Of a DNA stretch of 32,000 nucleotides, positions 2,675 to 16,989 are shown in pieces. The first letter of the stretch is position 1. Each line of letters begins with the position of its first letter. The position numbers were made by a program, and so were the translations under genes. Under the pieces are notes generated by a model. It ran no database searches, was not told the DNA's origin, and saw nothing but the letters and a program-made list of their open reading frames with translations. The DNA lies in the NCBI RefSeq assembly GCF_001412615.1, contig NZ_CP013011.1, forward strand, positions 60,001-92,000, read 5' to 3'. The stretch is from Pyrodictium delaneyi. Its GTDB lineage: Archaea; Thermoproteota; Thermoprotei_A; Sulfolobales; Pyrodictiaceae.

Positions 2675-2750
2675 TGGAGCCGCCGCCGGGATTCGAACCC
2701 GGGACCTCCGCCTTACCAGGGCGGCGCTCTGCCGGCTGAGCTACGGCGGC
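2675..2750 (-). tRNA. tRNA-Thr(GGU), intact copy, CCA encoded; its 5' 45 nt are attL
   Basis: Reverse complement: GCCGCCG-TA-GCTC-AGCCGGCA-GAGC-G-CCGCC-CTGGTAA-GGCGG-AGGTC-CCGGG-TTCGAAT-CCCGG-CGGCGGC-T-CCA. This is a full cloverleaf with all stems Watson-Crick paired. Confidence 0.9.
2706..2750. repeat. attL core (45 bp, equals tRNA-Thr nucleotides 1-45)
   Basis: ctccgccttaccagggcggcgctctgccggctgagctacggcggc is identical to 16945-16989. The flanking bases differ on both sides (2705 c vs 16944 g; 2751 g vs 16990 a). Confidence 0.95.
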
Positions 2751-2969
2751 GCTCCGGGGCGCCAGTGATACTATTACCTCGACTAAGTCTCTTGCGGTCA
2801 GAACTGAAAGCAGCTTGTCGCAGAGCGAGGCGCTGACGTTCCTCTTCCCGTTCGCTATCATGTTCGCGTAGGCGTTGCTTATCCCCAGCTCCTTCGGCTT
2901 AACCCCCCGAGTCTTCCACGCATAGAGAAACAATGCCCTAGAGAGCTCGGGGCCCAGGATATCACACAT
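2706..2969 (-). CDS. Integrase N-terminal fragment Int(N), HTH-like, ending in the att-encoded 15 codons
   Basis: In the integrated state, ORF 2622..2969 reads from the ATG at 2969 into and through the tRNA gene. Residues 1-73 (MCDILGPELSRALFLYAWKTRGVKPKELGISNAYANMIANGKRNVS...) belong to the element. Codons 74-88 (AAVAQPAERRPGKAE) are the att core. Confidence 0.8.
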
Positions 2970-3082
2970 GGACAGGTTACATCACCAAGAACCAGGGGCA
3001 CGAGGAGTTGCATATTAGTGTTATATCAGAAGGCTTGAAGACTAGTACCGCCCCGGAGCCTATCTAGCACGGTGCGGAGAGG

Positions 3083-3637
3083 GTGCGGCCCGAGCCCGTG
3101 TATGCTGCTGTGCTGCTCCTGGGCCTGGCTCTGGGCTTTGCTGCTGGCCAGTTCACGGCACAGCCCAAGGAGATAGTGCGCGAGACCGTGCTAACGACCA
3201 CCGTCACCGAGACCGTTACCGAGACGGTTACAGTCACGCCGCCCAAACCGAGGATAGAGTGCAGGCCGCTACGGGTGCTCTACAGCAACACCAGCTTAAC
3301 GCTTGGTGTCTACCTTGTAGAGGAGAAGAGCAATGTGAGCGGAATAAGCCTACCAACGATTAAGAAGAAGAGAGATGTTATCAGGCTGAGCTTTGAAGGT
3401 GGCGGCGAGGGCCAGAGGCTACACATCCACATAGACGCCTACCCCTCGCAGCTAAGGTGGCTGAGCATAGAGCTCTACAACCCAGCCGACCTGCTCGCCT
3501 ACGTGGCTATGCCCAAGAGCAAGGACATAGTATTCAGCATACCCTACCCCGACAACTACACCCTAGTCATAGAGCCACAGAGCACAGTAAAGCTCTACAA
3601 CGTCACAGTGTGGATAGAAGAGTGTCAGCAACAATAG
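3083..3637 (+). CDS. N-terminally anchored or secreted glycoprotein with a TVTETVTETVTVT linker
   Basis: GTG start preceded by GGTG. Hydrophobic N-terminus VYAAVLLLGLALGFAAG, followed by a Thr/Val repeat and a beta-rich domain with NTS, NVS, NYT and NVT sequons. Confidence 0.65.
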   Translation: MRPEPVYAAVLLLGLALGFAAGQFTAQPKEIVRETVLTTTVTETVTETVTVTPPKPRIECRPLRVLYSNTSLTLGVYLVEEKSNVSGISLPTIKKKRDVIRLSFEGGGEGQRLHIHIDAYPSQLRWLSIELYNPADLLAYVAMPKSKDIVFSIPYPDNYTLVIEPQSTVKLYNVTVWIEECQQQ

Positions 3638-3729
3638 CGATGTATGCCCACCCCCAGCCCAGCTTTTTACATCAACCCATCCCCCTCATTCCCCCATGCC
3701 ATATACCCGCACTTTTTCGGAGACAAGCC

Positions 3730-3900
3730 ATGAGCTGTGAGCGGGAAACCGTACTGAAGCTATTAGTGAAGCTCCGTCGAGAGATAAGAGCACTTGACAT
3801 AGATGAACAAGCTAAAGCGAAGGTTCTCGAAAAGATCAGAGCCTATGAGCTTGAGCTTGAGGAGCTGCTGGCCGAGGAGCCCGTGTTCTCTAGGAGCTGA
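3730..3900 (+). CDS. 56-aa coiled-coil protein
   Basis: Internal ATG of ORF 3457..3900 gives MSCERETVLKLLVKLRREIRALDIDEQAKAKVLEKIRAYELELEELLAEEPVFSRS. A TTTTTA box lies about 60 nt upstream. The upstream part of the tracked ORF looks non-coding (P/H/Q-rich). Confidence 0.45.
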   Translation: MSCERETVLKLLVKLRREIRALDIDEQAKAKVLEKIRAYELELEELLAEEPVFSRS

Positions 3901-4196
3901 TACATGGCTCTAAGCAGGTCAGCTATCTTTTTGCCCTTCTCGGTCAGCTTGACGCATGTTACCTCTTTCTTCTTGCGCGGGTCGTAGCAGACACCACGCT
4001 CAACTAGGCCTAGATCCTCTAGGTGCCTATAAGCATCATAGAATGTGCCCGAGCCAAGCTCTACTTGTAGCTCGTACTGTGGGATCTCATCCTTGCCGCC
4101 TTCTATGAAAGCACGTAGGAATTTCTCGATGCTCTTAGCCTTGAAGATTATGAGCCCCACTTCCTTTTCCCGAATCCAGAGAGGGGGTGTATGCAA
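3843..4196 (-). CDS. winged-helix DNA-binding protein
   Basis: 117 aa with a TTG start. IPQYELQVELGSGTFYDAYRHLEDLGLVERGVCYDPRKKKEVTCVKLTEKGKK has the helix-turn-helix plus beta-wing pattern of wHTH regulators. Confidence 0.6.
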   Translation of the reverse strand: MHTPPLWIREKEVGLIIFKAKSIEKFLRAFIEGGKDEIPQYELQVELGSGTFYDAYRHLEDLGLVERGVCYDPRKKKEVTCVKLTEKGKKIADLLRAMYQLLENTGSSASSSSSSSS

Positions 4197-4226
4197 ATTT
4201 CAGCTTTTTTCGTGGTAGTAGTCTGA

Positions 4227-4619
4227 CTACCAGTCTCCCGCGCCCGCTCTCTCCTCTACTCTCTGCGTTTTGGCTAAACTAAGAGCATGTTCTAACAAGC
4301 TTTCTTTGAGCTCTCCATCCTTTAGAAGTCGGAGTAAAAGGATTCTAAGCAGCTCTAGCTCCTGGTAGAGATCTGGTCTTGCACGTTCTAGTTGCTCAAA
4401 GAACTTATTCACGCGTTCAAGTAGTGTCTCCCCGACTGGGGTCTTTAACCCACAATTAGGACATGTTGCGCGTTTTGCCGCTCCTCTATAACACCATGTA
4501 TAGCCGCAGTGTTTACAGACCACCCATGTGCCTGGACACATTCCGTTACTATGCCCGCTGGCGTGGTTGGTGGTCAGACTACTACCACGAAAACCGCGCA
4601 TTCCCGCTCCCGTTTTCAT
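4227..4619 (-). CDS. Zn-ribbon protein (start uncertain: 4619, 4601 or 4541)
   Basis: CKHCGYTW-x11-CPNCG forms a C2C2 ribbon, followed by a helical tail. The 5' part of tracked ORF 4227..4817 overlaps the divergent RHH gene and was discarded. Confidence 0.55.
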   Translation of the reverse strand: MKTGAGMRGFRGSSLTTNHASGHSNGMCPGTWVVCKHCGYTWCYRGAAKRATCPNCGLKTPVGETLLERVNKFFEQLERARPDLYQELELLRILLLRLLKDGELKESLLEHALSLAKTQRVEERAGAGDW

Positions 4620-4686
4620 CTCTTTGCTGGCCTCTTTTTTCGGTTTCTGGATTCGGAGAAGGGCAATAAGCTTATATCTGATGCAA

Positions 4687-4704
4687 TCCGACTCTAGAAT
4701 CGGA
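4687..4704. promoter_or_regulatory. imperfect 18-bp palindrome in the divergent Zn-ribbon/RHH promoter region (candidate operator)
   Basis: tccgaCtctagaAtcgga. A further TCGGA core lies in the string attcggag at 4651-4658. The TATA-like cttatat at about 4671-4677 lies between them. Confidence 0.35.
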
Positions 4705-4718
4705 GCCCAGAGCCCGAG

Positions 4719-4916
4719 GTGAGAGGTGTGCCCCGACCCAAGATTGGAAGGCGTGTAACCGTCTCTCTCCCGCCCGAACTCTACGAGAAGATCGAGAACT
4801 ACCGAAAGAAGGAGCATCTAACAGAGATGAGCGAGGCAATACGTCGCCTGCTCTACAAGGCTATTGAGATCGAAGAGGAGAGGGCTCGAGCGGTAGCTGC
4901 GGCAACTACTGCCTAG
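4719..4916 (+). CDS. ribbon-helix-helix (CopG/Arc-type) DNA-binding protein
   Basis: RRVTVSLPPELYEKIENYRKKEHLTEMSEAIRRLLYKAIE shows a beta strand followed by two helices. GTG at 4719, or GTG at 4728 preceded by GAGGTGA. Confidence 0.7.
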   Translation: MRGVPRPKIGRRVTVSLPPELYEKIENYRKKEHLTEMSEAIRRLLYKAIEIEEERARAVAAATTA

Positions 4917-4923
4917 GGGGTGG

Positions 4924-5148
4924 ATGGGGATGGTGCGGTTCACCTACGAGAGCCTCATCGACTACGTGTTCACGAAGATGAATAAGGCGATGGAGCTGCT
5001 GGACGAGGCTATGCAGGCGCTCTGGTGTCGCGGCAAGAGCGTAGACGAGTGCCTCAAGGGCATCGACAAGGCGTACAGCCTCATCGAGGACGCCAAGCTC
5101 GAGCTCAGCGAGGCAATATCAGAGATACTGGTCGTAATGGTGGGATGA
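4924..5148 (+). CDS. small helical hypothetical protein
   Basis: 74-aa ORF with GGGGGTGG directly upstream. Its stop overlaps the next start region (ATGAATG). Confidence 0.5.
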   Translation: MGMVRFTYESLIDYVFTKMNKAMELLDEAMQALWCRGKSVDECLKGIDKAYSLIEDAKLELSEAISEILVVMVG

Positions 5149-5322
5149 ATGCGGGTCGTGACGTTCAAGGTGGATGAGGACTTCCTCGAAAAGCTAGACA
5201 GCTTCGCCCGCTTGAAGGGCGTGACCAGGAGCGAGGTCATCAGGAAGGCGTTGGAGCTGTACCTGAGGCTAGAGGATTGGAAGGTGCGCCCCGAGCCGAA
5301 GATAGTGAGGCTGCTGAGCTAG
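5149..5322 (+). CDS. second ribbon-helix-helix protein (57 aa, below the ORF-track cutoff)
   Basis: My own translation: MRVVTFKVDEDFLEKLDSFARLKGVTRSEVIRKALELYLRLEDWKVRPEPKIVRLLS, stop TAG at 5320-5322. The pattern is a classic RHH (VTFKVDEDFLEKLD...RSEVIRKAL). Confidence 0.65.
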   Translation: MRVVTFKVDEDFLEKLDSFARLKGVTRSEVIRKALELYLRLEDWKVRPEPKIVRLLS

Positions 5323-5334
5323 GGTGGCACAGCA

Positions 5335-5841
5335 GTGCACCATATCTGCCTCTTCATAGTCGAGGCAGACTCTAGGGAAGAGGCTGAGGAGCTGGCGCTG
5401 TGTGCCTGGACGGGGGACACGGCCTACTGCGCTCCGAGGTGGTGGCCGCCGCCCGTCAGGGTGCTCTGCGGCGTCAAGTGGGACTATGCCACTACAGTAG
5501 GCAAGCTCAAGCTGTACGAGCGCCAGCTCATAGAGGGCGGCGTCCCGCCGAGCTGCGCCCGCCGCATCATGGAGCGGCTGCCCAGGTGCCCCCACGAGTG
5601 GGACAGGGACGACGTCACCGTGGCCTGCCTGGACTTCCCTGCGAGGGTGTCAGACCTGGGCATAGACGCGGCCTACGCGATAGCAGCCGCGTTCAACGGC
5701 ATGGGCGACATCTGCCTCAACATCCTCTACAGGGAAGACACGGCAATCATCTACAGCAGCGGCCTGTGGAAGCTCCGCAAACTGCTAAACACCAGGAGCC
5801 ACGACAAGCTATGGCTAGTCATAGTAGACGCCCACGAGTAG
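5335..5841 (+). CDS. hypothetical protein (168 aa, Cys/Trp-rich, no recognisable domain)
   Basis: Longest coherent frame in this stretch. The competing frame 5400..5849 is Arg/Gly/Pro-rich junk. Confidence 0.5.
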   Translation: MHHICLFIVEADSREEAEELALCAWTGDTAYCAPRWWPPPVRVLCGVKWDYATTVGKLKLYERQLIEGGVPPSCARRIMERLPRCPHEWDRDDVTVACLDFPARVSDLGIDAAYAIAAAFNGMGDICLNILYREDTAIIYSSGLWKLRKLLNTRSHDKLWLVIVDAHE

Positions 5842-5845
5842 AGGG

Positions 5846-6148
5846 GTGACACCCGTGGCGGCTGAGCGTCTCCTGGCGTGGCTGGACAAGAACTCTGACA
5901 GGCTGCTGCTGGTGGGGGTGCTCTGGCTCGCCGCCGTCATGACGCTACAGCTGGCGCTCACAGCGCTTGGGCACAAGACCATCGAGGACGTGGCCAGGGA
6001 AGAGGTGCGGGAATGGCTGGTGACGCATAACATCACCGTGGTGGTGCAGCAGCCGAGGACCGTCGAGCTGCCAGAGAACCTGTTCTACCTGCTGGTGTTT
6101 GCGCTACTCTTCATGCCACTAGTAGGGGCAATACTCCGAGACAGGTGA
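5846..6148 (+). CDS. two-TM membrane protein (start more likely GTG at 5855)
   Basis: Hydrophobic segments LLLVGVLWLAAVMTLQLALTALG and LFYLLVFALLFMPLVGAIL. GGGGTGA lies 5 nt before the GTG at 5855. Confidence 0.5.
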   Translation: MTPVAAERLLAWLDKNSDRLLLVGVLWLAAVMTLQLALTALGHKTIEDVAREEVREWLVTHNITVVVQQPRTVELPENLFYLLVFALLFMPLVGAILRDR

Positions 6149-6154
6149 TACGCC

Positions 6155-6688
6155 GTGGCGCTGGACGCTAGGCAGCTCAAGGCCCGGTACCAGCAGAAGT
6201 GGCGTATCGCTGCAAGGCGGGAGCTTGCTGTGCTGAATCTGCTGAACATCCTGCTGCCGGACGGCTACGTGGCTATAGCGGCTGGGCTCGGCACGGGTAC
6301 GACGGACTTCATCGACCGGAGCTATGGGAGCCCGCTGGACGCGTTCGACCTGGTGGTGCTCCGGGGCATGGACGCTGTGGCGTTCATAGACGTTACGGGG
6401 TTCTGGAGCGAGCAGGCCGCCAGGACGGTAAACGGCGGCAAGGAGCTCTGCGTGGGCGCGTGGAAGCTCTGGAAGGCCCAGCGCTTCGGCCTGCTCGACC
6501 GCGCCTGGATAGTCCACGTCGCCGACAAGCGCGTCAGCCTACGCTGGCTCCCCCTAGCAGCCCTCGAGGCCGAGAAGCACATGGCACGCCTAGTCCACGG
6601 CGAGCGCCCATACTACTGCCTACCCCAGCAGAAGTGGCGCGACACAAGCGCGTTCATCCGCTGGCTCACTGCCCAGGCCCACGCCTAG
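6155..6688 (+). CDS. Hjc-like PD-(D/E)xK nuclease-fold protein (putative junction resolvase) with a C-terminal extension
   Basis: AGGTGA lies 5 nt before the GTG start. The N-terminal half runs parallel to my memory of Pyrococcus Hjc. [20 protein letters not shown] matches [41 protein letters not shown] matches VDLVAGNGKKYLCIEVKVT, and [23 protein letters not shown] matches [26 protein letters not shown]. Confidence 0.4.
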   Translation: [177 protein letters not shown]

Positions 6689-6717
6689 CCCTCTTTCTCC
6701 CCGCATACTCCCTTCAA

Positions 6718-6746
6718 CACACGTACACATGGGGGTGGTACGTGTG
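6718..6746. promoter_or_regulatory. 9-bp-stem inverted repeat between the Hjc-like gene and the wHTH gene
   Basis: cacacgtac-acatgggggtg-gtacgtgtg. The arms are perfectly complementary. Confidence 0.35.
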
Positions 6747-6819
6747 CCCGGGCGTTGTGGCTTCACAGCTGTCACGCGCCGGGAACTGAAGAAGCTAGAG
6801 AAGACGGGGGTGGCCGAAG

Positions 6820-7092
6820 ATGCGCTTTGTGGATAAGATTGGTGTGCTGCTTGAGCTCGCGGAGAGGAGCGATGGCTGCATCGAGCAGCGAGAGCTGGCG
6901 CATGAGCTGGAGAAGCGTGGACTCAACCCGGTGACTGCTAAGAGCAGTGCTAGCCGGCTCGTTAACAAGCTACTGTCCGCCGGGCTGGCCGTGGAGTGTT
7001 CGCCAAGCCCCAGGGGCTCCAAGCGCATATACGTAGAGCCTGACATCTTGCGCACACTCATCCAAGTATGCAAGCTATGCAAGGAAGTCTAA
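6820..7092 (+). CDS. winged-helix DNA-binding protein
   Basis: 90 aa. IEQRELAHELEKRGLNPVTAKSSASRLVNKLLSAGLAVE...GSKRIYV fits HTH plus wing. Confidence 0.6.
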   Translation: MRFVDKIGVLLELAERSDGCIEQRELAHELEKRGLNPVTAKSSASRLVNKLLSAGLAVECSPSPRGSKRIYVEPDILRTLIQVCKLCKEV

Positions 7093-7106
7093 CAGGGTGG
7101 CCGGCA

Positions 7107-7670
7107 ATGGGTAGGCATGTGTTGTACTCTATATTCTACCGCTGTGGTGATGGCCGGGAGCGGCTGCGTTGTGTGGACGAGGCGGGGTTCCGGCGGGCGC
7201 TGGCTGGTATCGCTGAGGCTGGCTGCCGGGTGGAGTTCATCCACGACGACGTGCTGCCGCGCGAGCCATGGCTCGCCGACTACGTGCTCGCGCTGCTACA
7301 CTATGCTGGTAGGCCGCTGAGGCTCTACCAGGTGGTGAGGCTGCTGAGCGTCTTCGCGATGCTGGCGGGGCTCGAGGACGAGCTAGAGGTCTATGACACC
7401 GGCAAGGGCCCCTGGAGCACCGAGGTAGAGACCACGGTGTACGAACTGGTGTACACCGGGTACCTGGAGTCCACGAAGCGGGGCTACGCGCTCACCGAGG
7501 CCAAGGGCGTCGACGAGGCACGCTGCGCGGCGGCGGTGATAGAGGCCTGGAGCAGCGACGAAGCCAAACTCCTCAAACGCCTAGCCGAGAAAACCAGGCG
7601 GATGAACAGGGCCCAGTTCAACGCGTTCATAGAGAAACTACGGCCAGTGAGGGCGGCCACCCATGTATGA
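7107..7670 (+). CDS. hypothetical protein with a wHTH-like central region
   Basis: In-frame ATG at 7107 of ORF 7068..7670 avoids overlap with the upstream gene. Central segment: YVLALLHYAGRPLRLYQVVRLLSVFAML...GPWSTEVETTVYELVYTGYLESTKRGYALTE. Confidence 0.5.
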   Translation: MGRHVLYSIFYRCGDGRERLRCVDEAGFRRALAGIAEAGCRVEFIHDDVLPREPWLADYVLALLHYAGRPLRLYQVVRLLSVFAMLAGLEDELEVYDTGKGPWSTEVETTVYELVYTGYLESTKRGYALTEAKGVDEARCAAAVIEAWSSDEAKLLKRLAEKTRRMNRAQFNAFIEKLRPVRAATHV

Positions 7671-7815
7671 GCTTGACCCCGAGGCCATGGAGATGGCGGT
7701 GTACTGGCTCTTCGACCACGAGCTCTGGGAGCTGCTCAGCGACATAGAAGCCGCCAAGCGCGACGCAGAATGGCTCAAGAAAATCCTCAGAAAGAGGGTG
7801 GCCGGGGATGGCTAG
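7663..7815 (+). CDS. 50-aa acidic helical protein (below the ORF-track cutoff)
   Basis: My own translation: MYELDPEAMEMAVYWLFDHELWELLSDIEAAKRDAEWLKKILRKRVAGDG. Its ATG overlaps the upstream stop (ATGTATGA) and its stop overlaps the next ATG. Confidence 0.4.
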   Translation: MYELDPEAMEMAVYWLFDHELWELLSDIEAAKRDAEWLKKILRKRVAGDG

Positions 7816-8008
7816 TCGTCTTGCACGTTTCTTGGGGCGTGTCCTCAGGCCCCTGGAGCTCCTTGGGGAGATAGAGCGCCGGGCCCGCTGCATACGCTGG
7901 GAGCAGGAGTGCCGTTTCTACGGCAAGAACTGCCTCGAGTATAAGCTCACATGCCACGATACAAAACCGCTGGGCCGGCTCCTGAGGGGGCTGCTCCGCA
8001 GAGGCTAG
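7808..8008 (+). CDS. 66-aa basic Cys-containing protein
   Basis: ORF coupled to the previous gene (ATGGCTAG overlap). Contains CIRWEQEC..C..C. Confidence 0.4.
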   Translation: MASRLARFLGRVLRPLELLGEIERRARCIRWEQECRFYGKNCLEYKLTCHDTKPLGRLLRGLLRRG

Positions 8009-8010
8009 AG

Positions 8011-8037
8011 TATATGTATATGTATATACTATATGTA
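8011..8037. repeat. AT-rich TATATG-type micro-repeat and palindrome at a convergent gene junction
   Basis: tatatgtatatgtatatactatatgta. It contains the palindromic gtatatac. It is a sharp AT island in a GC-rich element. Confidence 0.5.
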
Positions 8038-8940
8038 GCCCCACTCGCGGGCGATGTCCTCGAGCTCCAGCTCTTCCACCGCTTCTTTATCGTCGCTCTC
8101 GGCTATCTCCTCTAGCTCCTCTGCCGCCTTCTCCGCGAGCTCCTCTAGCTCCTTCTGTATCTTCTTGGTGCCCGCCTCTACGTATTTGTCGCGCATCCTC
8201 TTGTAGTCCAGGTATATCTCGTCCGGCAGGACTGCCATGAACCTGTACTCCCAGAGCGGCTCGGGCATCTTCCGGCGGTAGAAGAGCCACTCGAAGTCCT
8301 CGCTGTCGACTATGTAGCCCCTCGTCTTGCTTATCTTGACGAAGCACTTCTCGTGTGCCTCTGCCAGCTCCCTGTACGTCTTGCCCCGGTTGGCTTCTAT
8401 CAGCCTGCGGCACTCGGGGATGTCCCGGCGGGGTTTCACGTTCTCGACGCTGACGAGATCCACGAGGCTCAGCGACTCCCTTATGCCCTTGGCGAGCTTC
8501 CCGTAGCTGGTCGCCGTGAATATCATCGTGGAGACGTGGGTACGTATCACCTCTAGGTGCTCGACCACGGCCATCACGAACTTGGACTTGTAGCGGCCGC
8601 GGAACAGCCAGGCGCCAGCGTCGTCCCATATCGCGAGGGGTATCCTCTTGTGGTGGTCGACCAGCTCCTTGAAGACCCGGACGAACTCGGTCGGGCTGTA
8701 GAAGATGTACTTCTTCGCCGTGTCCCAGTCCCTGTAGACGCCCAGCAGGAGCTTGATAGCCAGCACGGACTTGCCTATCCCGCGCTTGAAGATGGCGTTG
8801 GGGTACGCGAATATCCCCCAGAGCAGCCCGTAGTCGTTCACGTAGCTCTCCCATATAACCTCTAGGTGCGGCATCTTCGCCGTATGCCTGTTTATGAACT
8901 CCTGCAGTGTTAGCTGTTTCTTGGCCTTCGCCAGGCTCAT
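8029..8940 (-). CDS. P-loop NTPase with an acidic C-terminal tail
   Basis: Walker A FKRGIGKSVLA and Walker B PLAIWDDAGAW. The tail reads EELEELAEKAAEELEEIAESDDKEAVEELELEDIAREWGYI. The alternative frame 8087..8854 is Arg/Gly junk. Confidence 0.75.
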   Translation of the reverse strand: MSLAKAKKQLTLQEFINRHTAKMPHLEVIWESYVNDYGLLWGIFAYPNAIFKRGIGKSVLAIKLLLGVYRDWDTAKKYIFYSPTEFVRVFKELVDHHKRIPLAIWDDAGAWLFRGRYKSKFVMAVVEHLEVIRTHVSTMIFTATSYGKLAKGIRESLSLVDLVSVENVKPRRDIPECRRLIEANRGKTYRELAEAHEKCFVKISKTRGYIVDSEDFEWLFYRRKMPEPLWEYRFMAVLPDEIYLDYKRMRDKYVEAGTKKIQKELEELAEKAAEELEEIAESDDKEAVEELELEDIAREWGYI

Positions 8941-10191: not shown

Positions 10192-10201
10192 CCTCTCACC
10201 C

Positions 10202-10906
10202 CTAGACGGGCTTGATTATGTCTACTATGAGCTTCACGATTTCGGCCACGGTCTTGAACAGCTTCTCGAACATCCGGTAGATACGCTCGAAGAAATCGAG
10301 CCACATGGTTATGAAGCCGAGCAGCGGGAACAGCGACCGCTCCCTCGCGGCGCGGTTAGCGCTGTCCACGAACGTTGCTAGTATCATCGTCAGCACTATC
10401 CAGGGTATCCACGGTATGATGTTCACGCCCCAGGCCTTTATGGTTGCAAACGCCCACACAACTATCTCGACGAACGACGTTAGTGCTGCTATCAGGGCGG
10501 CGCCTATGTTGAAGATGAGCCAGCCTAGGTTGAATATCAACTGTAGGATGTAGCTGCCGAACACGTCCAGGAACTTGACCACGGCGCCGATTATCGGCAC
10601 GGCTTCTATCTTGTCCTTTATCCAATTCCAGAGGGATTTGGCCCCCTCTTGCACCTTGCAGCCTATGTAGCCGAATACGTCCCAGCTCAGCCAGCTGTCT
10701 GGCGGCTGGCAGCCAGTAGTGTTCGTGAAGTTGAAGCTCTGCACGAACTCGCGGAACGGTGTTGTATTATCGCTGTATATCGGGTTCTGGGCACCGGTAA
10801 CATTGTAGAGTATCTCTATCGGGTTGGGCGGAGTAGTCATGTTCCAAGTAGTGGTCTGCCCCACTAGCAGCAAAGAAACAATGAGCAGGGGCAGCAGCCG
10901 GCGCAC
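10202..10906 (-). CDS. secreted, glycosylated polytopic membrane protein
   Basis: Signal-like N-terminus MRRLLPLLIVSLLLVG followed by QTTT. Sequons NMT, NVT, NTT, NFT and NTT, then 3-4 hydrophobic helices. AGGTGGTG precedes the GTG start. Confidence 0.6.
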   Translation of the reverse strand: MRRLLPLLIVSLLLVGQTTTWNMTTPPNPIEILYNVTGAQNPIYSDNTTPFREFVQSFNFTNTTGCQPPDSWLSWDVFGYIGCKVQEGAKSLWNWIKDKIEAVPIIGAVVKFLDVFGSYILQLIFNLGWLIFNIGAALIAALTSFVEIVVWAFATIKAWGVNIIPWIPWIVLTMILATFVDSANRAARERSLFPLLGFITMWLDFFERIYRMFEKLFKTVAEIVKLIVDIIKPV

Positions 10907-10916
10907 GGTGCACCAC

Positions 10917-11198
10917 CTAGGCGGGCTTCTTCTCGACTAGGTATATCTCGACGGGTATCGGGCTGTACGCCTTCACCCAGTTCTTGTAGAGCTGGAACGC
11001 CTCGTCCCTGGCGATTCCCTCTAGTTCTACTTCGGCCCTCTTCGCGTGGTCGCCGTAGACTTCCTTCGAGGCCGAGATGAACTGGAGTGTGCGGTGTGCT
11101 GCGAAGAGCCAGATTTTGAGTCGGCCGCGGATTGCTATCGTTTTCCTACGCAGCGTTTTGCCGTCACCGTTGTATATCTTGACGATTATCTTGGGCAT
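10917..11198 (-). CDS. hypothetical soluble protein (93 aa)
   Basis: Internal ATG at 11198, preceded by GGGGTGA, gives MPKIIVKIYNGDGKTLRRK... The upstream part of tracked ORF 10917..11459 is H/R/G-rich and overlaps the neighbouring gene. Confidence 0.5.
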   Translation of the reverse strand: MPKIIVKIYNGDGKTLRRKTIAIRGRLKIWLFAAHRTLQFISASKEVYGDHAKRAEVELEGIARDEAFQLYKNWVKAYSPIPVEIYLVEKKPA

Positions 11199-11215
11199 GC
11201 CCGTCACCCCGAGCT

Positions 11216-11452
11216 CTAGATTATCGCCTTCCCGAGGCGGTAGAGCAGCCACCCCGCTATCACCCCGAGAACCACCATCCAGACCGTGTTGGCGTCTATG
11301 CTCAGCGTGTAGTGGTGCTCCGGAGTCAAGGTTACCGTCGTGGTTACGGTTACGGTGGTCATGTTCGTGGTGTTGGTGTCGGTCTGGGCGAGGGACAGGA
11401 GAGCCACCACCGGGGCTATCCGGGGGATACGTAGGCGCCACAGCTGCAACAC
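11216..11452 (-). CDS. small secreted Thr-rich, C-terminally anchored protein (78 aa)
   Basis: GTG at 11452 (GGTG upstream) gives VLQLWRLRIPRIAPVVALLSLA-QTDTNTTNMTTVTVTTTVTLT...VWMVVLGVIAGWLLYRLGKAII. It has the same architecture as the three plus-strand paralogs. Confidence 0.5.
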   Translation of the reverse strand: MLQLWRLRIPRIAPVVALLSLAQTDTNTTNMTTVTVTTTVTLTPEHHYTLSIDANTVWMVVLGVIAGWLLYRLGKAII

Positions 11453-11511
11453 CCAGCACCGATTGTAACTAGGAGCCCCGGCTCTGACTAAACTATTGTG
11501 GCGTGATGCAC

Positions 11512-11530
11512 CTACATCACAGTGATGTAG
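11512..11530. promoter_or_regulatory. perfect 19-bp palindrome between the two divergent structural operons (candidate operator)
   Basis: ctacatcac-a-gtgatgtag. It is flanked by A/T-rich boxes (aatagttta on the minus strand at about 11487-11495, and catatctaatt at about 11548-11558). Confidence 0.45.
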
Positions 11531-11603
11531 CAACAACACTTAGCAGCCCATATCTAATTCCTGCTGCAACAACTGTTACACGACAGAGCGTGAGGTGTGA
11601 GAG

Positions 11604-11849
11604 GTGCGCATCCTATCCCGGCTCAAGGAGAAGATAGACGAGAAGAAGATAGCCAGGAAGATAGCCGAGCACCCCGAGGCAGTGGCGGCTCTAACCCTCG
11701 TGGCTCAGACAACTACAAACGACACCGCAACCACGACAACAACTGTAGACCTAAGCCCGATGGTCAGCATAATCAGCAGCGTCATCCCGCTATTCGTGCT
11801 AGTAGCAGTCATAAAGATACTCTTCAAGAGCTTCAAGGACGTAGCATAG
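11604..11849 (+). CDS. small membrane protein, paralog 1 (candidate virion structural protein)
   Basis: GAGGTG lies 6 nt before the GTG start. A charged amphipathic N-terminus is followed by AVAALTLVA-QTTTNDTATTTTT, the TM segment MVSIISSVIPLFVLVAVIKILF, and KSFKDVA. Confidence 0.65.
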   Translation: MRILSRLKEKIDEKKIARKIAEHPEAVAALTLVAQTTTNDTATTTTTVDLSPMVSIISSVIPLFVLVAVIKILFKSFKDVA

Positions 11850-11864
11850 CGGGGCTGAGCAGTA

Positions 11865-12071
11865 ATGGCCAGCATCAACCGAATCAAGGAGAGAGTAAAG
11901 AGCCTGGCCAGCAGGCTGGGCCCGCCTGCCGCCGGCGCCGCCGTCCTAGTCGCGCAGACCGACAGCATGACAACCACAATATCTCTGGTAAACAGTGTCA
12001 TCCCGGTGCTAGTGCTGGTGATGGTTCTGAAGTTACTGTTCTCCAGCTTCAAGGAGATAAGCAAGGACTAG
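11865..12071 (+). CDS. small membrane protein, paralog 2
   Basis: MASINRIKERVKSLASRLG..AAVLVA-QTDSMTTT..VIPVLVLVMVLKLLFSSFKEISKD. Same layout as paralog 1. Confidence 0.65.
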   Translation: MASINRIKERVKSLASRLGPPAAGAAVLVAQTDSMTTTISLVNSVIPVLVLVMVLKLLFSSFKEISKD

Positions 12072-12082
12072 GGGTGGGACAC

Positions 12083-12292
12083 GTGTTCAAGCAGCTCAAG
12101 GAGAGACTGAGGGCGGGTTTTCGCAGGGCGGCCCCAGCCGCCGCAGCGGCCCTAGCACTGGCGCAGACGAGCACTTCAACATCTGGCTACGACGCAGTCG
12201 GCACGGTAGTCACTATGCTCATAGCCGTGGCGCTGCCAGCGCTGATACTCGTCAGCATCGTAAAGATGATTATGAACCATATACGCGCCTAG
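12083..12292 (+). CDS. small membrane protein, paralog 3 (GTG at 12083 or 12074)
   Basis: This is the 3' end of tracked ORF 11597..12292. VFKQLKERLRAGFRRAAPAAAAALALA-QTSTSTSG..VVTMLIAVALPALILVSIVKMIMNHIRA. GGGGTGG lies upstream. Confidence 0.6.
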   Translation: MFKQLKERLRAGFRRAAPAAAAALALAQTSTSTSGYDAVGTVVTMLIAVALPALILVSIVKMIMNHIRA

Positions 12293-12474
12293 CGCCACTC
12301 GTAGCAGCGATAGCGTTCACGGCGCAGAGCGCAGTAGAGACAGTCATAGACGTAAACCAGCAGGTCGCGGCGCTCATAGGGGCGCTCACGGTCTTCCTGC
12401 CGGTCGCCATACCTGCCATCATACTGCTGACTCTGCTGAAGATACTCTTCAGCGCCATGAAGCCAACGAGGTGA
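12292..12474 (+). other. start-less fourth copy of the small membrane-protein unit (pseudogene, recoded, or unconventional start)
   Basis: The frame open from 12061 to TGA at 12472-12474 encodes ..APLVAAIAFTA-QSAVETVIDVNQQVAALIGALTVFLPVAIPAIILLTLLKILFSAMKPTR. It shares the 13-nt string aagatactcttca with paralog 1 (11814-11826 vs 12439-12451). There is no ATG, GTG or TTG until 6 codons before the stop. Confidence 0.4.
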
Positions 12475-12479
12475 CCCGC

Positions 12480-12587
12480 ATGGGGTTTTTCGAGCCCCTT
12501 CTCCTCGGCGCCCTGGTCTACATGGTTATCCTGTTCTCGATGGTGATGCGGGTTGGCGGTGAGGATGAGGAGTCTGGCGGTGGCTAG
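12480..12587 (+). CDS. possible 35-aa TM peptide
   Basis: My own translation: MGFFEPLLLGALVYMVILFSMVMRVGGEDEESGGG. It overlaps the start of the large glycoprotein gene. Support is weak. Confidence 0.25.
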   Translation: MGFFEPLLLGALVYMVILFSMVMRVGGEDEESGGG

Positions 12588-15021
12588 CCTGATTGCCCTC
12601 GCTGTGCTACTGCCCCTAGCGAGCTCGCAGACCACGATGCTCCAGAACGTCTACTACCTGGACGTAGTCCAGGGACATTGGTACGCAGTATACACCGGCG
12701 GCACTCCATACAGAGTCTTCTACGTGGACGGCAGCGGGCAGACAGTCTATGTGACGTCGTACTGGTGGGACGCGAACCAGAGCTACATCATATTCCAGGC
12801 ACCCATCACCGGTAAGGTGTATCTGCGCGAGGAGCCGAGCCTCACACTATCAACACTCAGCACCACGGGATGGTGGAACTCCATCTCTGCGAGCGTGACA
12901 ATCACGACTAATAGCACGTTTCCGAACGGAACATACACAATGACGTTTAATCCGGCAAGCATAACGTATGATGGGAAGCAGCTAAAGATTGGATACGCGG
13001 CGAGCATCACGAAGGGATGGTATGGCCGGCTCGATGTCAACACTAAGTATTTCTTCGACTTCCAGTCATCAATAACGATAGACGATAGCAGCCTGAGCGT
13101 GTATGCGCGCTACGTGACAAGCTACTACTGCTATCCGTCACCGACGTACTGTTGGGAGCAGCGGCCTGTCTACAGCTCGCCAATCAATGGCGTGGCCGTG
13201 AACAGACCCGACCCGACGCAGTGTAACGTAGTTGCAAAATATTCGTATGTCCATGGACTACTGACTGTCACTGCAACAATCACGAACTATGGTGGAAGTT
13301 GTGAAACAGGTCAGAACGAGTACATATTGACACTATATACAACTAAGACAGTTGTTGTGAACGACTCGTTTACAGCGGACAATGGAAACACAGTTCATAT
13401 TGTTGACAGTCTCACTTACGCGGACATAGTTGCAACCAGTAGTAGCGCGACGTACTATCTCCAGAGCAGCCAGTGGAGCATAACGTTCCCTAACAGCACA
13501 GACATTGATAAGCCGCTCGTGCTTCTGCTACCAAGCAACATAAGCATGAGCAACCCGGCGGCCTACATCAAGAGTCCGCTAACGGCGTGGGCTGGCGTCG
13601 TGGCTAGGAGCGCTGGCAACTACACGCTGCTGGTCTTCAGCCCACCGGCCATGTACAACACTAGCAGCGTCAGCCTAGACCTGGTGGCAAACTATCCCTA
13701 CCGCTACGCGATACCACCAATCAACGTGAGATATGCAACCAGATTGGACATAGGCAGCATCCTGCCGGTATCGGGGAGCTTCAGCGTTGTGAACGGAGTA
13801 GCTGTGATAGACGGCAACATAAGCCTCGGGCAGCTCATAGGCTCAACGCTGCTGCTCCGCGGCGACCTAAGCAACGCCACCATCACAGGCGCAGAGGCCG
13901 GCAACATCACCATAGACGGCACCACGTGGCTAGCGCTCTACGTCTACGACACTAACGCCATGATAAGCGGGCATGCGGAGATAGCCGAGCTCATAGTCCT
14001 CGAGAACACCAGGACTATGATGGACTACACTGCCAGCATGACGGCGGGCTGGGACATTAGACCGTATGAAGTAGTCTCGGTAGAGGCTATCAGCTCGGCG
14101 AGCGTCTCCGGGAGCTGGGCTTATAGGATACCGGTCTACATCACGCTGTCGTATCTCCCGCAGAGCCTCACGGATACTGGCTACTTGTTCAGGCTGGAGC
14201 TGCCCATCGGCGACTGGATTAGAGCGGGGCTGCTATCACCTGCGCTCGAGGACTTGCTCATAGTGGACAGCTCGATGCAGCCGCTGCCATTCGCCATCAT
14301 AAAGAACGACGGTGAGAAGGCCGTGGTATACGTGCGCTACACCAGGCCGCTGCTCAGCCAGTCCATCGTGATATACATCCTGCTGAAGAACGAGCAGCTC
14401 TGGGGCACCGGGAACAGCTTCGCCAGCCTCGTAGCCACGTTCGACCGTATCAATCCCGCCGAGGGAGTGGACGACCTGGGGTGGAGCTACGGCTACAGCT
14501 ACATGGTCTACAACGCCTGGCTGTTCATAGGCAACGCTACCATTGCAGCCGGGCCTACCACATTCGACTTCGTGGCCTGGGAGCCGTCCAGCGGGCTCAT
14601 CTACGAGCAGCACGGCAGCCTGGTTACACAAAACATCTCAGTGACCCCCGCGAGCGGCGACGAGGTGCTGGTGCTCTTCAGCAACAATTATCAAGATGCT
14701 CTCGTGTATGTCGATGGCAAACCATGGTATAGTATACCACTGGCAAGCTTCAACATGACATCGCCGGCGTACTACGTCAAGTGGAAGAGCGCCGGAGCCG
14801 TCTACGCTGGCAAGATGATACCATACTCGTACGCAATCGGGCAGATTGTAGGCTCGCTGGAGCAGCCAGCGAAGGTGGAGATACAGCAGCCGGTGCCGCA
14901 GCAGCCGCAGCAGAGCGCGAGCATGTGGGACTTGCTCGCCGCGATGGCACCGCTGTTCCTGCTAGCCATCATAGTGAGGCTGATGCAGAACCCGCCAGCG
15001 CCAGCCCCCTACCCCAGATAG
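12565..15021 (+). CDS. large secreted, C-terminally anchored glycoprotein (candidate spike, fibre or receptor-binding protein)
   Basis: ATG at 12565 preceded by GGTGAGG (the track starts at TTG 12553). Signal MRSLAVASLIALAVLLPLASS followed by QTT. At least 13 N-x-S/T sequons (NQS, NST, NGT, NDS, NIS, NYT, NTS, NAT, NIT, NMT...). A Q/P-rich stalk precedes the TM segment LLAAMAPLFLLAIIV near the C-terminus. Confidence 0.75.
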   Translation: MRSLAVASLIALAVLLPLASSQTTMLQNVYYLDVVQGHWYAVYTGGTPYRVFYVDGSGQTVYVTSYWWDANQSYIIFQAPITGKVYLREEPSLTLSTLSTTGWWNSISASVTITTNSTFPNGTYTMTFNPASITYDGKQLKIGYAASITKGWYGRLDVNTKYFFDFQSSITIDDSSLSVYARYVTSYYCYPSPTYCWEQRPVYSSPINGVAVNRPDPTQCNVVAKYSYVHGLLTVTATITNYGGSCETGQNEYILTLYTTKTVVVNDSFTADNGNTVHIVDSLTYADIVATSSSATYYLQSSQWSITFPNSTDIDKPLVLLLPSNISMSNPAAYIKSPLTAWAGVVARSAGNYTLLVFSPPAMYNTSSVSLDLVANYPYRYAIPPINVRYATRLDIGSILPVSGSFSVVNGVAVIDGNISLGQLIGSTLLLRGDLSNATITGAEAGNITIDGTTWLALYVYDTNAMISGHAEIAELIVLENTRTMMDYTASMTAGWDIRPYEVVSVEAISSASVSGSWAYRIPVYITLSYLPQSLTDTGYLFRLELPIGDWIRAGLLSPALEDLLIVDSSMQPLPFAIIKNDGEKAVVYVRYTRPLLSQSIVIYILLKNEQLWGTGNSFASLVATFDRINPAEGVDDLGWSYGYSYMVYNAWLFIGNATIAAGPTTFDFVAWEPSSGLIYEQHGSLVTQNISVTPASGDEVLVLFSNNYQDALVYVDGKPWYSIPLASFNMTSPAYYVKWKSAGAVYAGKMIPYSYAIGQIVGSLEQPAKVEIQQPVPQQPQQSASMWDLLAAMAPLFLLAIIVRLMQNPPAPAPYPR

Positions 15022-15069
15022 CGCTTTTTGCACTATCCGCTGCTCTCTACACTAGAGGGTGCACCAGAT

Positions 15070-15357
15070 ATGGCAAGGAATGTCTATCTGGGGCGCGACT
15101 GCCTAAGCCCGCCATGCGTAGATGACCGTGGCCGGAGAGGCCTAGACCGCATCTCGGAAGTCAAGGACATAGCCGACCGCATCATAGAGGACTGTGAGGC
15201 TGGACGCATATCCTATAGAACAGCAATGGCAAGGATGAATCTCCTAGAGCTCGTGGTCAGCAGGGACAGCAGCTTCTCGGTGGAGCAGCGGCTGAAGGCC
15301 CGCCGGCTCATAGACCGCAAGAGAGAGGAGCTCATGGAGAAGTGTGGCGGTGAGTAA
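15070..15357 (+). CDS. hypothetical helical protein (95 aa)
   Basis: Internal ATG of ORF 15028..15357 preceded by GAGGGTG. Sequence: MARNVYLGRDCLSPPCVDDRGRRGLDRISEVKDIADRIIEDCEAG... Confidence 0.45.
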   Translation: MARNVYLGRDCLSPPCVDDRGRRGLDRISEVKDIADRIIEDCEAGRISYRTAMARMNLLELVVSRDSSFSVEQRLKARRLIDRKREELMEKCGGE

Positions 15358-15360
15358 GCC

Positions 15361-16032
15361 GTGCTGGAGAGCCTGGTGGCCGGCACCCTCGCTTACCTCT
15401 TTTTGCGTAGGGACGTTCCCTCTACGCTCATTCCGTATCTTGCTTCCTTCGCAGCATTCCTGGATCAAGTCACTACAGTAGCAGCTATCAGTCTAGGCGC
15501 CCACGAGACTAATCCGTTCGTGCGCCTGTTCCTCGCGAGCCCCACACTCTTCTTCGCACTCTCGGCAGCCAAGATTCTGGTAGCGTGGCACATAGCCAGG
15601 CGGAGCCCAAGACTCGGGCTCTGGCTAGCTCTAGTCTTCCTAGCAGCCGCAGCGATAAACGCCCACAACGCCTACGCGCTCTACAACAATACCTCAACCA
15701 TAGAGCTTGGCGGCCACACGCTCCAGGTCTACATAGCTGACACAGAAAGGGAGAGGGAGTGCGGCTACTACTGCTACGACCACCCGGCGATAGCCTTCAT
15801 CTGGCCAGGGGGGACACCGCCGGAAGTAACCTTCACCATGGAAGGCCTGGACTACCCGCTGCTCCTAGTCCACGTCAGGGACTGCACAGTCATAGACGTG
15901 CTGGAGATGCAGCCCGGCGAGAAGTATAGAATAGATAATGTAGGGCCACAAGACTGGTTCATCGAGGTAAAGAACGCGAGCCTAGAGATAGAGCCTGGCG
16001 AAAATGTTTGGGGGCTAGTCTGCGAGGGCTAG
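15361..16032 (+). CDS. membrane domain (HETNPF motif) fused to a DUF192-like beta domain
   Basis: Four hydrophobic helices are followed by LQVYIADTERERECG...IAFIWPG...FTMEGLDYPLLLVHV...VIDVLEMQPG...WFIEVKNASLEIEPGENV. This matches my memory of the DUF192/COG1430 pattern. Confidence 0.45.
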   Translation: MLESLVAGTLAYLFLRRDVPSTLIPYLASFAAFLDQVTTVAAISLGAHETNPFVRLFLASPTLFFALSAAKILVAWHIARRSPRLGLWLALVFLAAAAINAHNAYALYNNTSTIELGGHTLQVYIADTERERECGYYCYDHPAIAFIWPGGTPPEVTFTMEGLDYPLLLVHVRDCTVIDVLEMQPGEKYRIDNVGPQDWFIEVKNASLEIEPGENVWGLVCEG

Positions 16033-16911
16033 GACTACGGCCCGGCGCGGCGGCTTCCTCTGCAACTCCCGAAACTTTTCGGGCCTCTCTAGCCCCTCTT
16101 CCAGCATCTTAAGGAGCTCGGGATAGCTCGCGTCTGCAAGCTGCCTGAGATTCTCGTAGGCCAGGTCGCCCACTTTGAGGCTCCCTAGCCTAGAGTGGTA
16201 GAACTCGCACACGTCACGGCCAAGTACACGGCGGCATACCTGGCGGTGCAGCTTTCTCAGCTTGGACGCCTCGAAGCCGAAGTCCCTGGTGAGCCGCCTC
16301 GTAAAGGTCTTGTAGCCTATGACCGTGCCCGCGTGCTCCTCTATAGCCTCTAAGAGTCTGGCCGGGAAGTAGATGTAGTCGCAGCGCTTCTTGCCACGCT
16401 TCCAGAAGAGCCCATATCTCGCCACGCCGTCGGGGAGAATCTCTAGTCTAGAGGGATCGTACTCGGCTATCATCCGGAGCACCTCGTCTATCCTGGCGCC
16501 GCTATAGTATAGTATGTAGAGTGATAGCCGCCATTCGGGCCTAACATGCTCTGCCACGTCCCTCAGGGCCGAGACTAGCTCTGCCCAGTCTATCTCCACG
16601 CGCTCCGACACCTTGCTCTCCGTCTTGCGCTTCAGCAGTGAGAGATAACGCTCCTTGGCGTCCTTGCTCAGTCTCCCAGTCTCGAAGAGAAACTGCACCA
16701 GCTTCCTGGCGGCCTTGTAGGCCTTGTCGTTGCCGAGGGCCTCTAGGGCCTTCTCCTCGTCCAGGTAGTCCAGCTTCTCCAGCGCCGAGACGTAGTCGTT
16801 CGCGGTGCGCTCCTCTATACGCTCCTTCTCTATGAGCCACCGCCTAAAGGACTGGAGCAGGCCCGAGTGCAGCGATATAACAGGCAGGCCCGATGACCCC
16901 GGCTCGACCAT
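16015..16911 (-). CDS. Integrase catalytic fragment Int(C), SSV-type tyrosine recombinase
   Basis: 298 aa with YSGARIDEV (catalytic Arg region), KLHRQVCRR (H-x-x-R) and a C-terminal Tyr region (GDLAYENL). The frame stays open upstream to the att core at 16944 (QVLDLLYRARR precedes the Met). Confidence 0.8.
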   Translation of the reverse strand: MVEPGSSGLPVISLHSGLLQSFRRWLIEKERIEERTANDYVSALEKLDYLDEEKALEALGNDKAYKAARKLVQFLFETGRLSKDAKERYLSLLKRKTESKVSERVEIDWAELVSALRDVAEHVRPEWRLSLYILYYSGARIDEVLRMIAEYDPSRLEILPDGVARYGLFWKRGKKRCDYIYFPARLLEAIEEHAGTVIGYKTFTRRLTRDFGFEASKLRKLHRQVCRRVLGRDVCEFYHSRLGSLKVGDLAYENLRQLADASYPELLKMLEEGLERPEKFRELQRKPPRRAVVLALAD

Positions 16912-16944
16912 GCGCCTTGCGCGATATAACAGGTCAAGAACTTG

Positions 16945-16989
16945 CTCCGCCTTACCAGGGCGGCGCTCTGCCGGCTGAGCTACGGCGGC
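16945..16989. repeat. attR core (orphan 5' half of tRNA-Thr)
   Basis: Exact 45-bp copy of 2706-2750. No T arm or 3' acceptor strand follows it. Confidence 0.95.

Follow-up and report, generated by a model that had tools for sequence, protein, structure and literature searches.

A candidate APOV1-like temperate virus integrated into the tRNA-Thr(GGU) gene of Pyrodictium delaneyi

Results

An insert that splits its own integrase gene

The window that we analyzed is a 32,000-nucleotide stretch of the genome of the deep-sea hyperthermophile Pyrodictium delaneyi (RefSeq assembly GCF_001412615.1, contig NZ_CP013011.1, positions 60,001 to 92,000); it contains an insert that we consider probable to be a complete temperate virus, likely still inducible, of the type of APOV1, to our knowledge the only sequenced member of the Guttaviridae. 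The Pyrodictiaceae grow near the upper temperature limit of life, and we know of no virus isolated or described from this family. The insert is bracketed by a perfect 45-bp direct repeat (2706-2750 and 16945-16989; spacing 14,239 bp), for which the chance expectation in 32 kb is ~4e-19 pairs. A preliminary description of this DNA, made from the sequence alone, had reported a provirus-like element bounded by this repeat in tRNA-Thr(GGU); a repeat search, ARAGORN and Rfam confirm the repeat and its setting, and the results below support the provirus.

ARAGORN and Rfam each call one tRNA in the window, tRNA-Thr(GGT) on the minus strand (2675/2678-2750); read on that strand, the repeat is nucleotides 1-45 of tRNA-Thr(GGU): it covers the 5' acceptor strand, the D arm and the anticodon arm and runs into the start of the variable loop. 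The left copy (attL, 2706-2750, minus strand) has this 45-bp core within the complete tRNA gene (2675-2750); the right copy (attR, 16945-16989, minus strand) has the identical core as a partial tRNA, with the 5' part only, beside the host DNA that was originally upstream of the tRNA.

A tyrosine integrase gene is divided between the two ends of the insert, with both parts on the minus strand. Int(N) (2751-2969) is the N-terminal part with an HTH_3-like region; in the integrated state its open reading frame (ORF) starts at 2969 and crosses att and the tRNA to a stop at 2622. Int(C) (16015-16944) is the catalytic part, and the ORF on this side (16015-16911) starts just inside the right att copy. 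When 16944 is joined to 2750, the result is a single uninterrupted integrase ORF of 397 amino acids, in which the att core codes for the residues AAVAQPAERRPGKAE. The joined protein matches Pfam PF16795 (Phage_integr_3, 'Archaeal phage integrase'; 6.4e-19) and has an N-terminal HTH-like region; the catalytic columns R..K..R..H/R..Y are kept in an alignment with the integrases of SSV1 (D335), APOV1, AGV1 and the metagenomic contig L077 (described below). Its closest deposited relatives are from a Pyrococcus abyssi plasmid (30%), Archaeoglobus veneficus pleomorphic virus 1 and Thermococcus prieurii virus 1. Because attP lies inside the int gene and integration splits that gene, the element is a provirus with an SSV-type (self-splitting) integrase, as had been claimed. 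The claim of a 14,239-bp circle likewise agrees with the repeat spacing and the restored ORF: excision would yield a circle of this length with an intact int, and at the level of the sequence the integration is precisely reversible.

The int gene is co-oriented with the tRNA, and the complete tRNA-Thr(GGU) copy at attL sits behind Int(N) coding DNA; with an att core that is this tRNA's 5' half, it follows that the only complete copy of this tRNA is preceded by Int(N) DNA. After integration, the promoter for tRNA-Thr is probably that of the integrase or an internal viral one. An A/T-rich stretch, GTAATAGTAT, lies ~17-26 nucleotides upstream of the attL tRNA in the otherwise GC-rich Int(N) ORF (window 2751-2790, minus strand) and may be a virus-supplied promoter for tRNA-Thr(GGU). 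[quoted passage not shown] Judged from its att sites, the P. delaneyi element is a second case of an archaeal integrase aimed at the 5' half of a tRNA, and such a site, which would leave the host tRNA-Thr(GGU) reliant on viral upstream DNA, is notable for the biology of archaeal integrases.

Genes shared with APOV1

Nine families (11 genes) are common to the element and APOV1, with local synteny: those of orf6, orf7, orf12-85, orf14, orf17, orf18, the orf19 ATPase, orf20 (DUF5658) and the orf21 integrase. A comparison with the APOV1 genome itself matches the winged helix-turn-helix (wHTH) regulator at 3843-4196 (minus strand) to orf6-94, which is annotated as MarR-like (40% identity, 2e-19); the 128-amino-acid protein at 8964-9350 (minus strand) to orf18-132 (8e-11), with weak similarity also to SSV1 B129; the P-loop 'DnaA-like' AAA+ ATPase at 8029-8940 (minus strand) to orf19; and the DUF5658 membrane protein at 15361-16032 (plus strand), which has an extra C-terminal domain, to orf20-100 as well as to the 102-amino-acid DUF5658 protein of SSV1. 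The 55-amino-acid protein at 3733-3900 (plus strand) is a homologue of orf7-57 (phmmer, 2e-13). Iterative hidden Markov model (HMM) searches over the ORFs of the metagenomic relatives identify the 224-amino-acid protein at 9517-10191 (minus strand), the marker gene of the group, as a homologue of orf17-201 (2e-33), the ~95-109-amino-acid protein at 15028/15070-15357 (plus strand) as a homologue of orf14-121 (2e-18) and the integrase as that of orf21. The order orf17-orf18-ATPase-DUF5658 is kept between the element and APOV1, and the orf18-like gene is always immediately upstream of the ATPase gene, in the element as in its relatives.

APOV1 resides as a provirus in a tRNA gene and can be induced; its circular genome of 13.8 kb encodes no polymerase (PMC5882108). 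The element appears to share the genome plan of the APOV1-like viruses, that is, a circular double-stranded DNA (dsDNA) provirus or episome of ~14-20 kb in a hyperthermophilic crenarchaeon, and its gene content identifies it as a new, quite divergent member of these guttavirus-related temperate viruses, not as a new kind of element. The preliminary description had noted a resemblance to Guttaviridae and Fuselloviridae, which these nine families and five shared with SSV1 bear out; it had, however, limited the link with known viruses to the integrase and the ATPase and had found the structural genes impossible to place by eye, and neither statement holds, as the link extends to all of these families, the genes at 11604-12292 are homologues of APOV1 orf12-85 and the membrane/ATPase block is syntenic with orf17-orf20. 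It had also called for a check for a known close relative: megablast with the element as a whole finds no nucleotide match among deposited phages, archaeal viruses and plasmids.

The ATPase (303 amino acids; 100% identical to P. delaneyi Pyrde_0084) is a homologue of SSV1 B251 as well as of APOV1 orf19. Its family in PHROGs is 'DnaA-like replication initiation protein' (phrog_5484, 1e-26), and the deposited viruses in which tblastn finds it are limited to Fuselloviridae, APOV1, APSV1, bicaudaviruses and a few from Archaeoglobi, with APOV1 as the best match (30%). It is the one P-loop NTPase that had been counted earlier; the companion statement that the element has no Rep is correct in the strict sense only, as this ATPase belongs to a replication-initiation family. 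One source gives the protein the label 'Zot N-terminal domain', and because its gene is also constantly found among membrane-protein genes, a role in packaging stays an option.

Coat-like proteins, glycoprotein and orf17-like protein

Three tandem genes on the plus strand (11604-11849, 11865-12071 and 12074-12292) encode small coat-like proteins of 81, 68 and 72 amino acids that match APOV1 orf12-85. Their common layout is a hydrophobic N-terminal segment, a [LV][AG]QT motif, an S/T-rich stretch (often with 'DLTP'), one strongly hydrophobic transmembrane helix and a basic tail. Because iterated profiles may absorb their targets, we rebuilt the coat-like profile without any APOV1 sequence; in a search with Z = 100,000, this profile finds APOV1 orf12-85 with E = 2.6e-8 and, on the opposite strand of the window, a divergent paralogue with 4.7e-11 (11216-11449, minus strand), the fourth small membrane protein with an 'LAQT' motif (77 amino acids). 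In the relatives, the coat-like genes usually occur as three tandem copies, and several contigs carry a fusion of three in an ORF of ~200 amino acids (L077 8680-9291; also L007, L009, L010, L011, L017 and L018). The fused ORFs suggest that the N-terminal hydrophobic 'AQT' segment is not a simple cleaved signal peptide, unless a polyprotein is processed.

A perfect 19-bp palindrome (11512-11530; CTACATCAC-A-GTGATGTAG), which may be an operator or an origin element, lies in the 154 bp that separate the membrane/ATPase block on the minus strand from the divergently oriented coat-like genes on the plus strand.

The gene at 12553-15021 (plus strand) encodes an 822-amino-acid glycoprotein, the putative receptor-binding or spike protein, that carries a signal peptide and 14 N-x-S/T sequons and has a C-terminal transmembrane segment as its anchor. 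Its homologues form five protein clusters only, all from the relatives; among all deposited phages and archaeal viruses, tblastn gives no relevant match. The NCBI call for this gene (794 amino acids, start at 12637) would lose the signal peptide. Between the last coat-like gene and the glycoprotein gene is a non-coding-looking spacer of ~250-260 bp (12293-12552), of similar size in contigs L078 and L079, that may hold a small hydrophobic ORF (MGFFEPLLLGALVYMVILF...) overlapping the glycoprotein start.

The orf17-like protein is rare: a full phmmer pass finds 22 clusters only among 1.84 billion representative proteins. In its structural model (pLDDT 78), which has no match in BFVD at E<0.03, a transmembrane helix at the N-terminus is followed by a beta domain and by helices at the C-terminus.

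Metagenomic relatives

A scan of metagenomes with the ATPase alignment identifies 68 loci, and exact-protein look-ups add three further, longer contigs; 24 contigs have at least three of the families. Across these contigs, the block of orf17-like, orf18-like, ATPase and (DUF5658) genes is kept, and the coat-like genes and the large glycoprotein gene are usually divergently transcribed from it. Contig L077 has a 133-bp terminal overlap that closes it to a 14,472-bp circle with an uninterrupted 377-amino-acid integrase and the same core genes, so members of the clade occur as free circular genomes. All of the core genes of the P. delaneyi element are full length compared with those of L077, L078 and L079; Rfam finds no tRNA fragments in these three relatives. 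The scan of genome contigs for relatives yields two distant metagenome-assembled genomes (MAGs) only, with P. delaneyi itself not among the matches, and that of viral contigs none.

In a MAG of Ca. Nitrosocaldus (L003 3-1526, JANWZS010000010.1), the orf17-like/orf18-like/ATPase/coat-like block occurs with a slightly changed order, and the same block is also present in the metagenome contigs L032, L033, L035, L036 and L039; the reach of the module thus extends beyond hosts of the Desulfurococcales type. It is tempting, although we hold it only as a tentative proposal that is somewhat more likely to fail than to stand, to view the element and its ~20-70 metagenomic relatives as an unrecognized family-level lineage that links Guttaviridae and Fuselloviridae and is defined by a triplicated (sometimes fused) single-hairpin mini coat protein and the orf17/orf18/ATPase/DUF5658 block; the P. 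delaneyi element would be the first of this lineage with a host that can be cultivated, and would have a second, independent 5'-half tRNA-targeting integrase that takes over transcription of the tRNA.

Other genes of the insert

Our gene count, for which our own selection of ORFs was reconciled with the NCBI gene calls of a second strain, is ~28 plausible genes with a coding density of 92%, fewer than the ~37 ORFs of the preliminary description. Predicted transmembrane segments are found in 11 proteins of the element, in line with the at least nine secreted or membrane proteins that it had listed.

The left arm begins with a 184-amino-acid protein (3083-3637, plus strand) that has a membrane anchor or signal at its N-terminus and a stretch rich in Thr and Val, and for which no homologue was found. 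Beyond the orf7-like and orf6-like genes are a Zn-ribbon protein (4227-4541, minus strand; CxxC...CxxC), an RHH (CopG-family) DNA-binding protein (4719-4916, plus strand; RHH_1, 1e-6), a 74-amino-acid gene within a strain-variable cassette (4924-5148, plus strand) and another RHH (CopG-family) protein (5149-5322, plus strand), which resembles the RHH proteins of AGV1, APSV1 and SSV1. A 168-amino-acid soluble protein and a 100-amino-acid protein with two transmembrane segments (5335-6148, plus strand) have no matches; they are followed by a viral/archaeal nuclease (6155-6688, plus strand; VirArc_Nuclease, the SSV1 D244 family) that is 42% identical to the AGV1 nuclease, and by four genes (6820-8008, plus strand) for proteins of 90 (a possible wHTH), 187-200, 50 and 66 amino acids. 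Within and beside the membrane/ATPase block, all on the minus strand, are a 57-amino-acid membrane protein (9347-9520), a 234-amino-acid secreted, multi-pass membrane protein (10202-10906) that occurs in no relatives but the closest, L078 and L079, and a 93-amino-acid soluble protein kept in the same two contigs (10917-11198).

Several of these assignments had been made earlier by eye. Both RHH proteins are found by Pfam; of three wHTH proteins, two have family support, and that is weak; the Zn-ribbon protein has weak matches only (DUF5817, 9e-5, below the cutoff); and the supposed Hjc-like nuclease belongs to VirArc_Nuclease and is not Hjc proper.

The NCBIfam search of the element's proteins gives no match. 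Pfam and PHROG searches recognize no capsid fold or Pfam capsid family, Pfam and NCBIfam searches no conjugation or plasmid Rep genes, and phmmer against PDB sequences finds no match for the ATPase, the 200-amino-acid protein, the 168-amino-acid protein or the integrase. A Rep-Arvir/DUF7845 rolling-circle Rep, a candidate prompted by a 2026 paper, was rejected, as no ORF has the matching size or family. The genes that remain unplaced after these searches are those for the 822-amino-acid glycoprotein, the 234-amino-acid multi-pass membrane protein and most of the left-arm genes.

Host flanks and a second strain

The GC content of the insert is 57.7%, compared with 47.9% and 50.7% in the flanks, a contrast that suggests a foreign origin. 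The housekeeping genes previously assigned to the flanks stand on the right, where Pfam identifies MetE (Meth_synt_2, 1e-72) and Trm1 (TRM, 1e-94); on the left, beside a PUA/TGT_C2 protein, the proposed L38e is an 88-amino-acid protein whose match is below threshold (E = 6e-4; 20 bits compared with a cutoff of 27). The left flank also contains a likely intron-containing tRNA (window 1211-1335, minus strand, 125 nucleotides; GGGCCCG...CGGGCCC-A-CCA), found as repeat family D7, with a T-arm 96% identical to that of tRNA-Thr; it is not called by ARAGORN or, at the gathering threshold, by the Rfam tRNA model.

Strain Hulk has the same provirus at the same site, with 99.96% identity over window 1-4947 and 5150-18940. 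Its genome is 99.77% similar to that of strain Su06 from the same vent field, and the paper describing it does not mention a virus (PMC5556600); our literature search retrieved no paper linking P. delaneyi or Pyrodictium to a provirus. In Hulk, at least 519 bp of unrelated coding sequence take the place of window 4948-5149, displacing the 74-amino-acid gene: two Hulk contigs end inside the element, and their last 191 bp (L076 1-191) and 328 bp (L073 13786-14113) are unrelated to 4948-5149. This difference resembles a cassette swap between related elements and suggests recent recombination. An A/T-only (TATATG)n-like run (8009-8028, 15% GC) between the convergent gene at 7808-8008 and the ATPase gene is 6 bp shorter in Hulk.

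Discussion

Proposed life cycle and alternative readings

If the insert is a temperate virus of the APOV1 type, its SSV-type integrase would have recombined attP with the 5' 45 nucleotides of tRNA-Thr(GGU) and thereby split int into Int(N) and Int(C), and the reverse recombination would restore the 397-amino-acid ORF and release the 14,239-bp circle. Lacking a polymerase, the circle would be copied by the host replisome, as suggested by the ICTV description of APOV1 (PMC5882108) and by knowledge of fuselloviruses, and the 'DnaA-like' AAA+ ATPase could act as an initiator or helicase loader that recruits the replisome or, alternatively, in membrane-associated packaging of the genome. The two RHH proteins, the wHTH proteins and the Zn-ribbon protein would set the lysogeny switch, while in the lysogen the complete tRNA-Thr downstream of viral DNA would be expressed from the integrase promoter or the internal viral promoter. 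For assembly, we envisage that the three or four tiny coat-like proteins and the anchored 822-amino-acid glycoprotein are inserted in the cytoplasmic membrane, accompanied there by the orf17-like, DUF5658 and 234-amino-acid membrane proteins, and that a lipid-containing ovoid or pleomorphic virion is released that would have no classical icosahedral capsid.

Several points weigh against this interpretation. Identities to APOV1 are low (25-55%), and the families held in common number 9 of ~28, that is, about one third of the genes. The Guttaviridae are defined by an enveloped ovoid or droplet-shaped virion, and the element is known here from its genes. The designation 'coat protein' for 11604-12292 is suggested by architecture and position, since the APOV1 major capsid protein was reported by mass (10.5 kDa), with its ORF not named (PMC5882108). 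Profile searches find no APOV1 or SSV1 homologue of the 822-amino-acid glycoprotein; its AlphaFold model, built from five sequences, has a mean pLDDT of 47.7 and is too poor to classify, and Foldseek against the PDB with this model returns noise only. The roles considered for the ATPase are those of its families, and the source with the Zot label names it a Zot-like domain protein. Finally, the circle of the P. delaneyi element is predicted from its ends, with the excised form not observed, and both sequenced strains carry the insert at the same site, as they would a fixed, dead insert.

These last points would also fit a cryptic, immobilized provirus remnant, fixed in the P. delaneyi lineage, unable to excise or to form particles and kept passively or for a benefit to the host such as superinfection immunity. 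Such a remnant could explain the near identity of the insert in the two strains (99.96%) and the absence of direct evidence for excision, and integration disrupts int in the 'suicidal' arrangement of SSV-type integrases (PMC8371274). However, APOV1 and SSV1 share the split-int arrangement, and APOV1 is inducible (PMC5882108); as the genomes of the strains, both from one vent field, are ~99.8% identical (PMC5556600), an insert common to them carries little information. The att repeats match perfectly, joining the ends restores the int ORF exactly, all of the core genes have the full length of those in the relatives, and the strain-specific cassette suggests recent recombination with a related element; we regard a remnant as quite unlikely. 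We judge it highly improbable that the insert is a non-viral integrative element, plasmid or vesicle-borne, that shares merely integrase, ATPase and regulators with viruses. This would agree with the lack of a recognized capsid fold or Pfam capsid family, with the many membrane proteins encoded and with the Thermococcales plasmids among the nearest deposited relatives of the integrase, but the genes in common with the virion-forming APOV1 extend to the tandem coat-like proteins, the orf17-like protein and orf14, a large anchored glycoprotein is of a type that serves as spike in enveloped archaeal viruses, and the searches detect neither conjugation nor plasmid Rep genes.

A third reading accepts a virus but makes it a spindle-shaped, fusellovirus-like one instead of an ovoid guttavirus, with the small hydrophobic proteins as very divergent VP1/VP3. 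Five families are indeed common to the element and SSV1 (NC_001338): the B251 ATPase, B129 (E = 1e-4), DUF5658, the D244 nuclease and the integrase. Compared by eye, the coat-like proteins have traits of VP1, that is, an N-terminus of amphipathic character, an S/T-rich loop after 'V[SA]Q' and a C-terminal helix with '(V/I)PLF...K..K', and the three-copy fusion in the relatives, which argues against simple signal-peptide cleavage, would be in keeping with them. The searches do not sustain this likeness: in hmmsearch, the coat-like profile has no match at E<10 among the ORFs of SSV1 and APSV1; hhalign against 16 VP1/VP3 sequences from eight fuselloviruses aligns 17 columns with P = 0.05 and a probability of 1%; and we therefore rejected homology with VP1/VP3. 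The profile of the glycoprotein family has no match in SSV1 or APSV1, including the VP4-like (C792) end-filament protein, and every shared family scores higher against APOV1 than against SSV1. We thus consider a spindle-shaped virus unlikely and retain the APOV1-like temperate virus as the probable identity of the insert.

A second cultivable host-provirus pair for the Guttaviridae would allow induction experiments, would provide a comparative basis to identify the real structural genes of enveloped viruses that lack capsid folds and would permit a test of the relationship between guttaviruses and fuselloviruses. The importance of the element lies in this cultivable host for an almost unknown virus group, in the wider uncultured clade and in the second case of 5'-half tRNA targeting.

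Comparison with known systems

Among other viruses, AvPV1 and the pleolipoviruses (including the Archaeoglobus pleomorphic viruses) were rejected as relatives: only the integrase and the ATPase match AvPV1, and neither the VP3-like membrane protein nor the VP4-like spike/fusogen of the Pleolipoviridae is encountered in the element. AGV1 (LC208019) shares with the element the nuclease (42% identity) and, as added by weaker searches, the DUF5658 protein and an RHH protein, and its preprint reports Pyrodictium sp. proteins as the best matches of its nuclease and ATPase; however, AGV1 and the element have no similarity in the ATPase, coat or membrane modules, and the major virion protein of AGV1 (309 amino acids) has no homologue in the element, so AGV1 was rejected as the closest relative.

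The likeness to the pTN3-like integrases of Thermococcales is in the mode of integration. Here too attB is the 5' half of a tRNA and the rebuilt tRNA lies downstream of the N-terminal integrase fragment, with the same need for an element-borne promoter to express it (PMC8371274). The two integrases are marginally similar (24% identity, E = 5e-3), and their settings differ: pTN3 belongs to the plasmids and viruses of Thermococcales, whereas the P. delaneyi element is a guttavirus-like provirus of a crenarchaeon.

SSV1 resembles the element in having attP in the integrase gene, a B129-like gene ahead of that for the B251 'DnaA-like' ATPase, a DUF5658 protein, a nuclease of the D244 family and a CopG/RHH regulator; the non-structural core of the Fuselloviridae (B251, B129, DUF5658, the D244 nuclease and the integrase) is thus present in the element. 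The fusellovirus plan is also similar: a genome of ~15 kb encodes small coat proteins that are hydrophobic and a single large glycoprotein with an anchor. Judged from its genes, the element would work like a fusellovirus or a guttavirus, but its structural proteins have no match to fusellovirus PHROG families and no supported homology with VP1/VP3 or VP4.

The closest comparison is with APOV1, from which the element differs in several respects. It has three or four orf12-like genes where APOV1 has one; its 822-amino-acid glycoprotein is not homologous to the large APOV1 proteins orf9-678, orf10-284 and orf16-391; and no homologue in APOV1 was found for its D244-type nuclease or its RHH proteins. 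The integration target is tRNA-Thr in the element and tRNA-Leu in APOV1, and its host family, the Pyrodictiaceae, is not that of APOV1. In their overall plan, the two are alike: each is integrated in a tRNA gene as a provirus, has a split SSV-type integrase, lacks a polymerase and is in the same size class of circular dsDNA (13.8 kb for APOV1 and 14.2 kb for the element, whose circular form is predicted from its sequence), and the hosts of both are marine, neutrophilic hyperthermophiles that belong to the Desulfurococcales as broadly defined.

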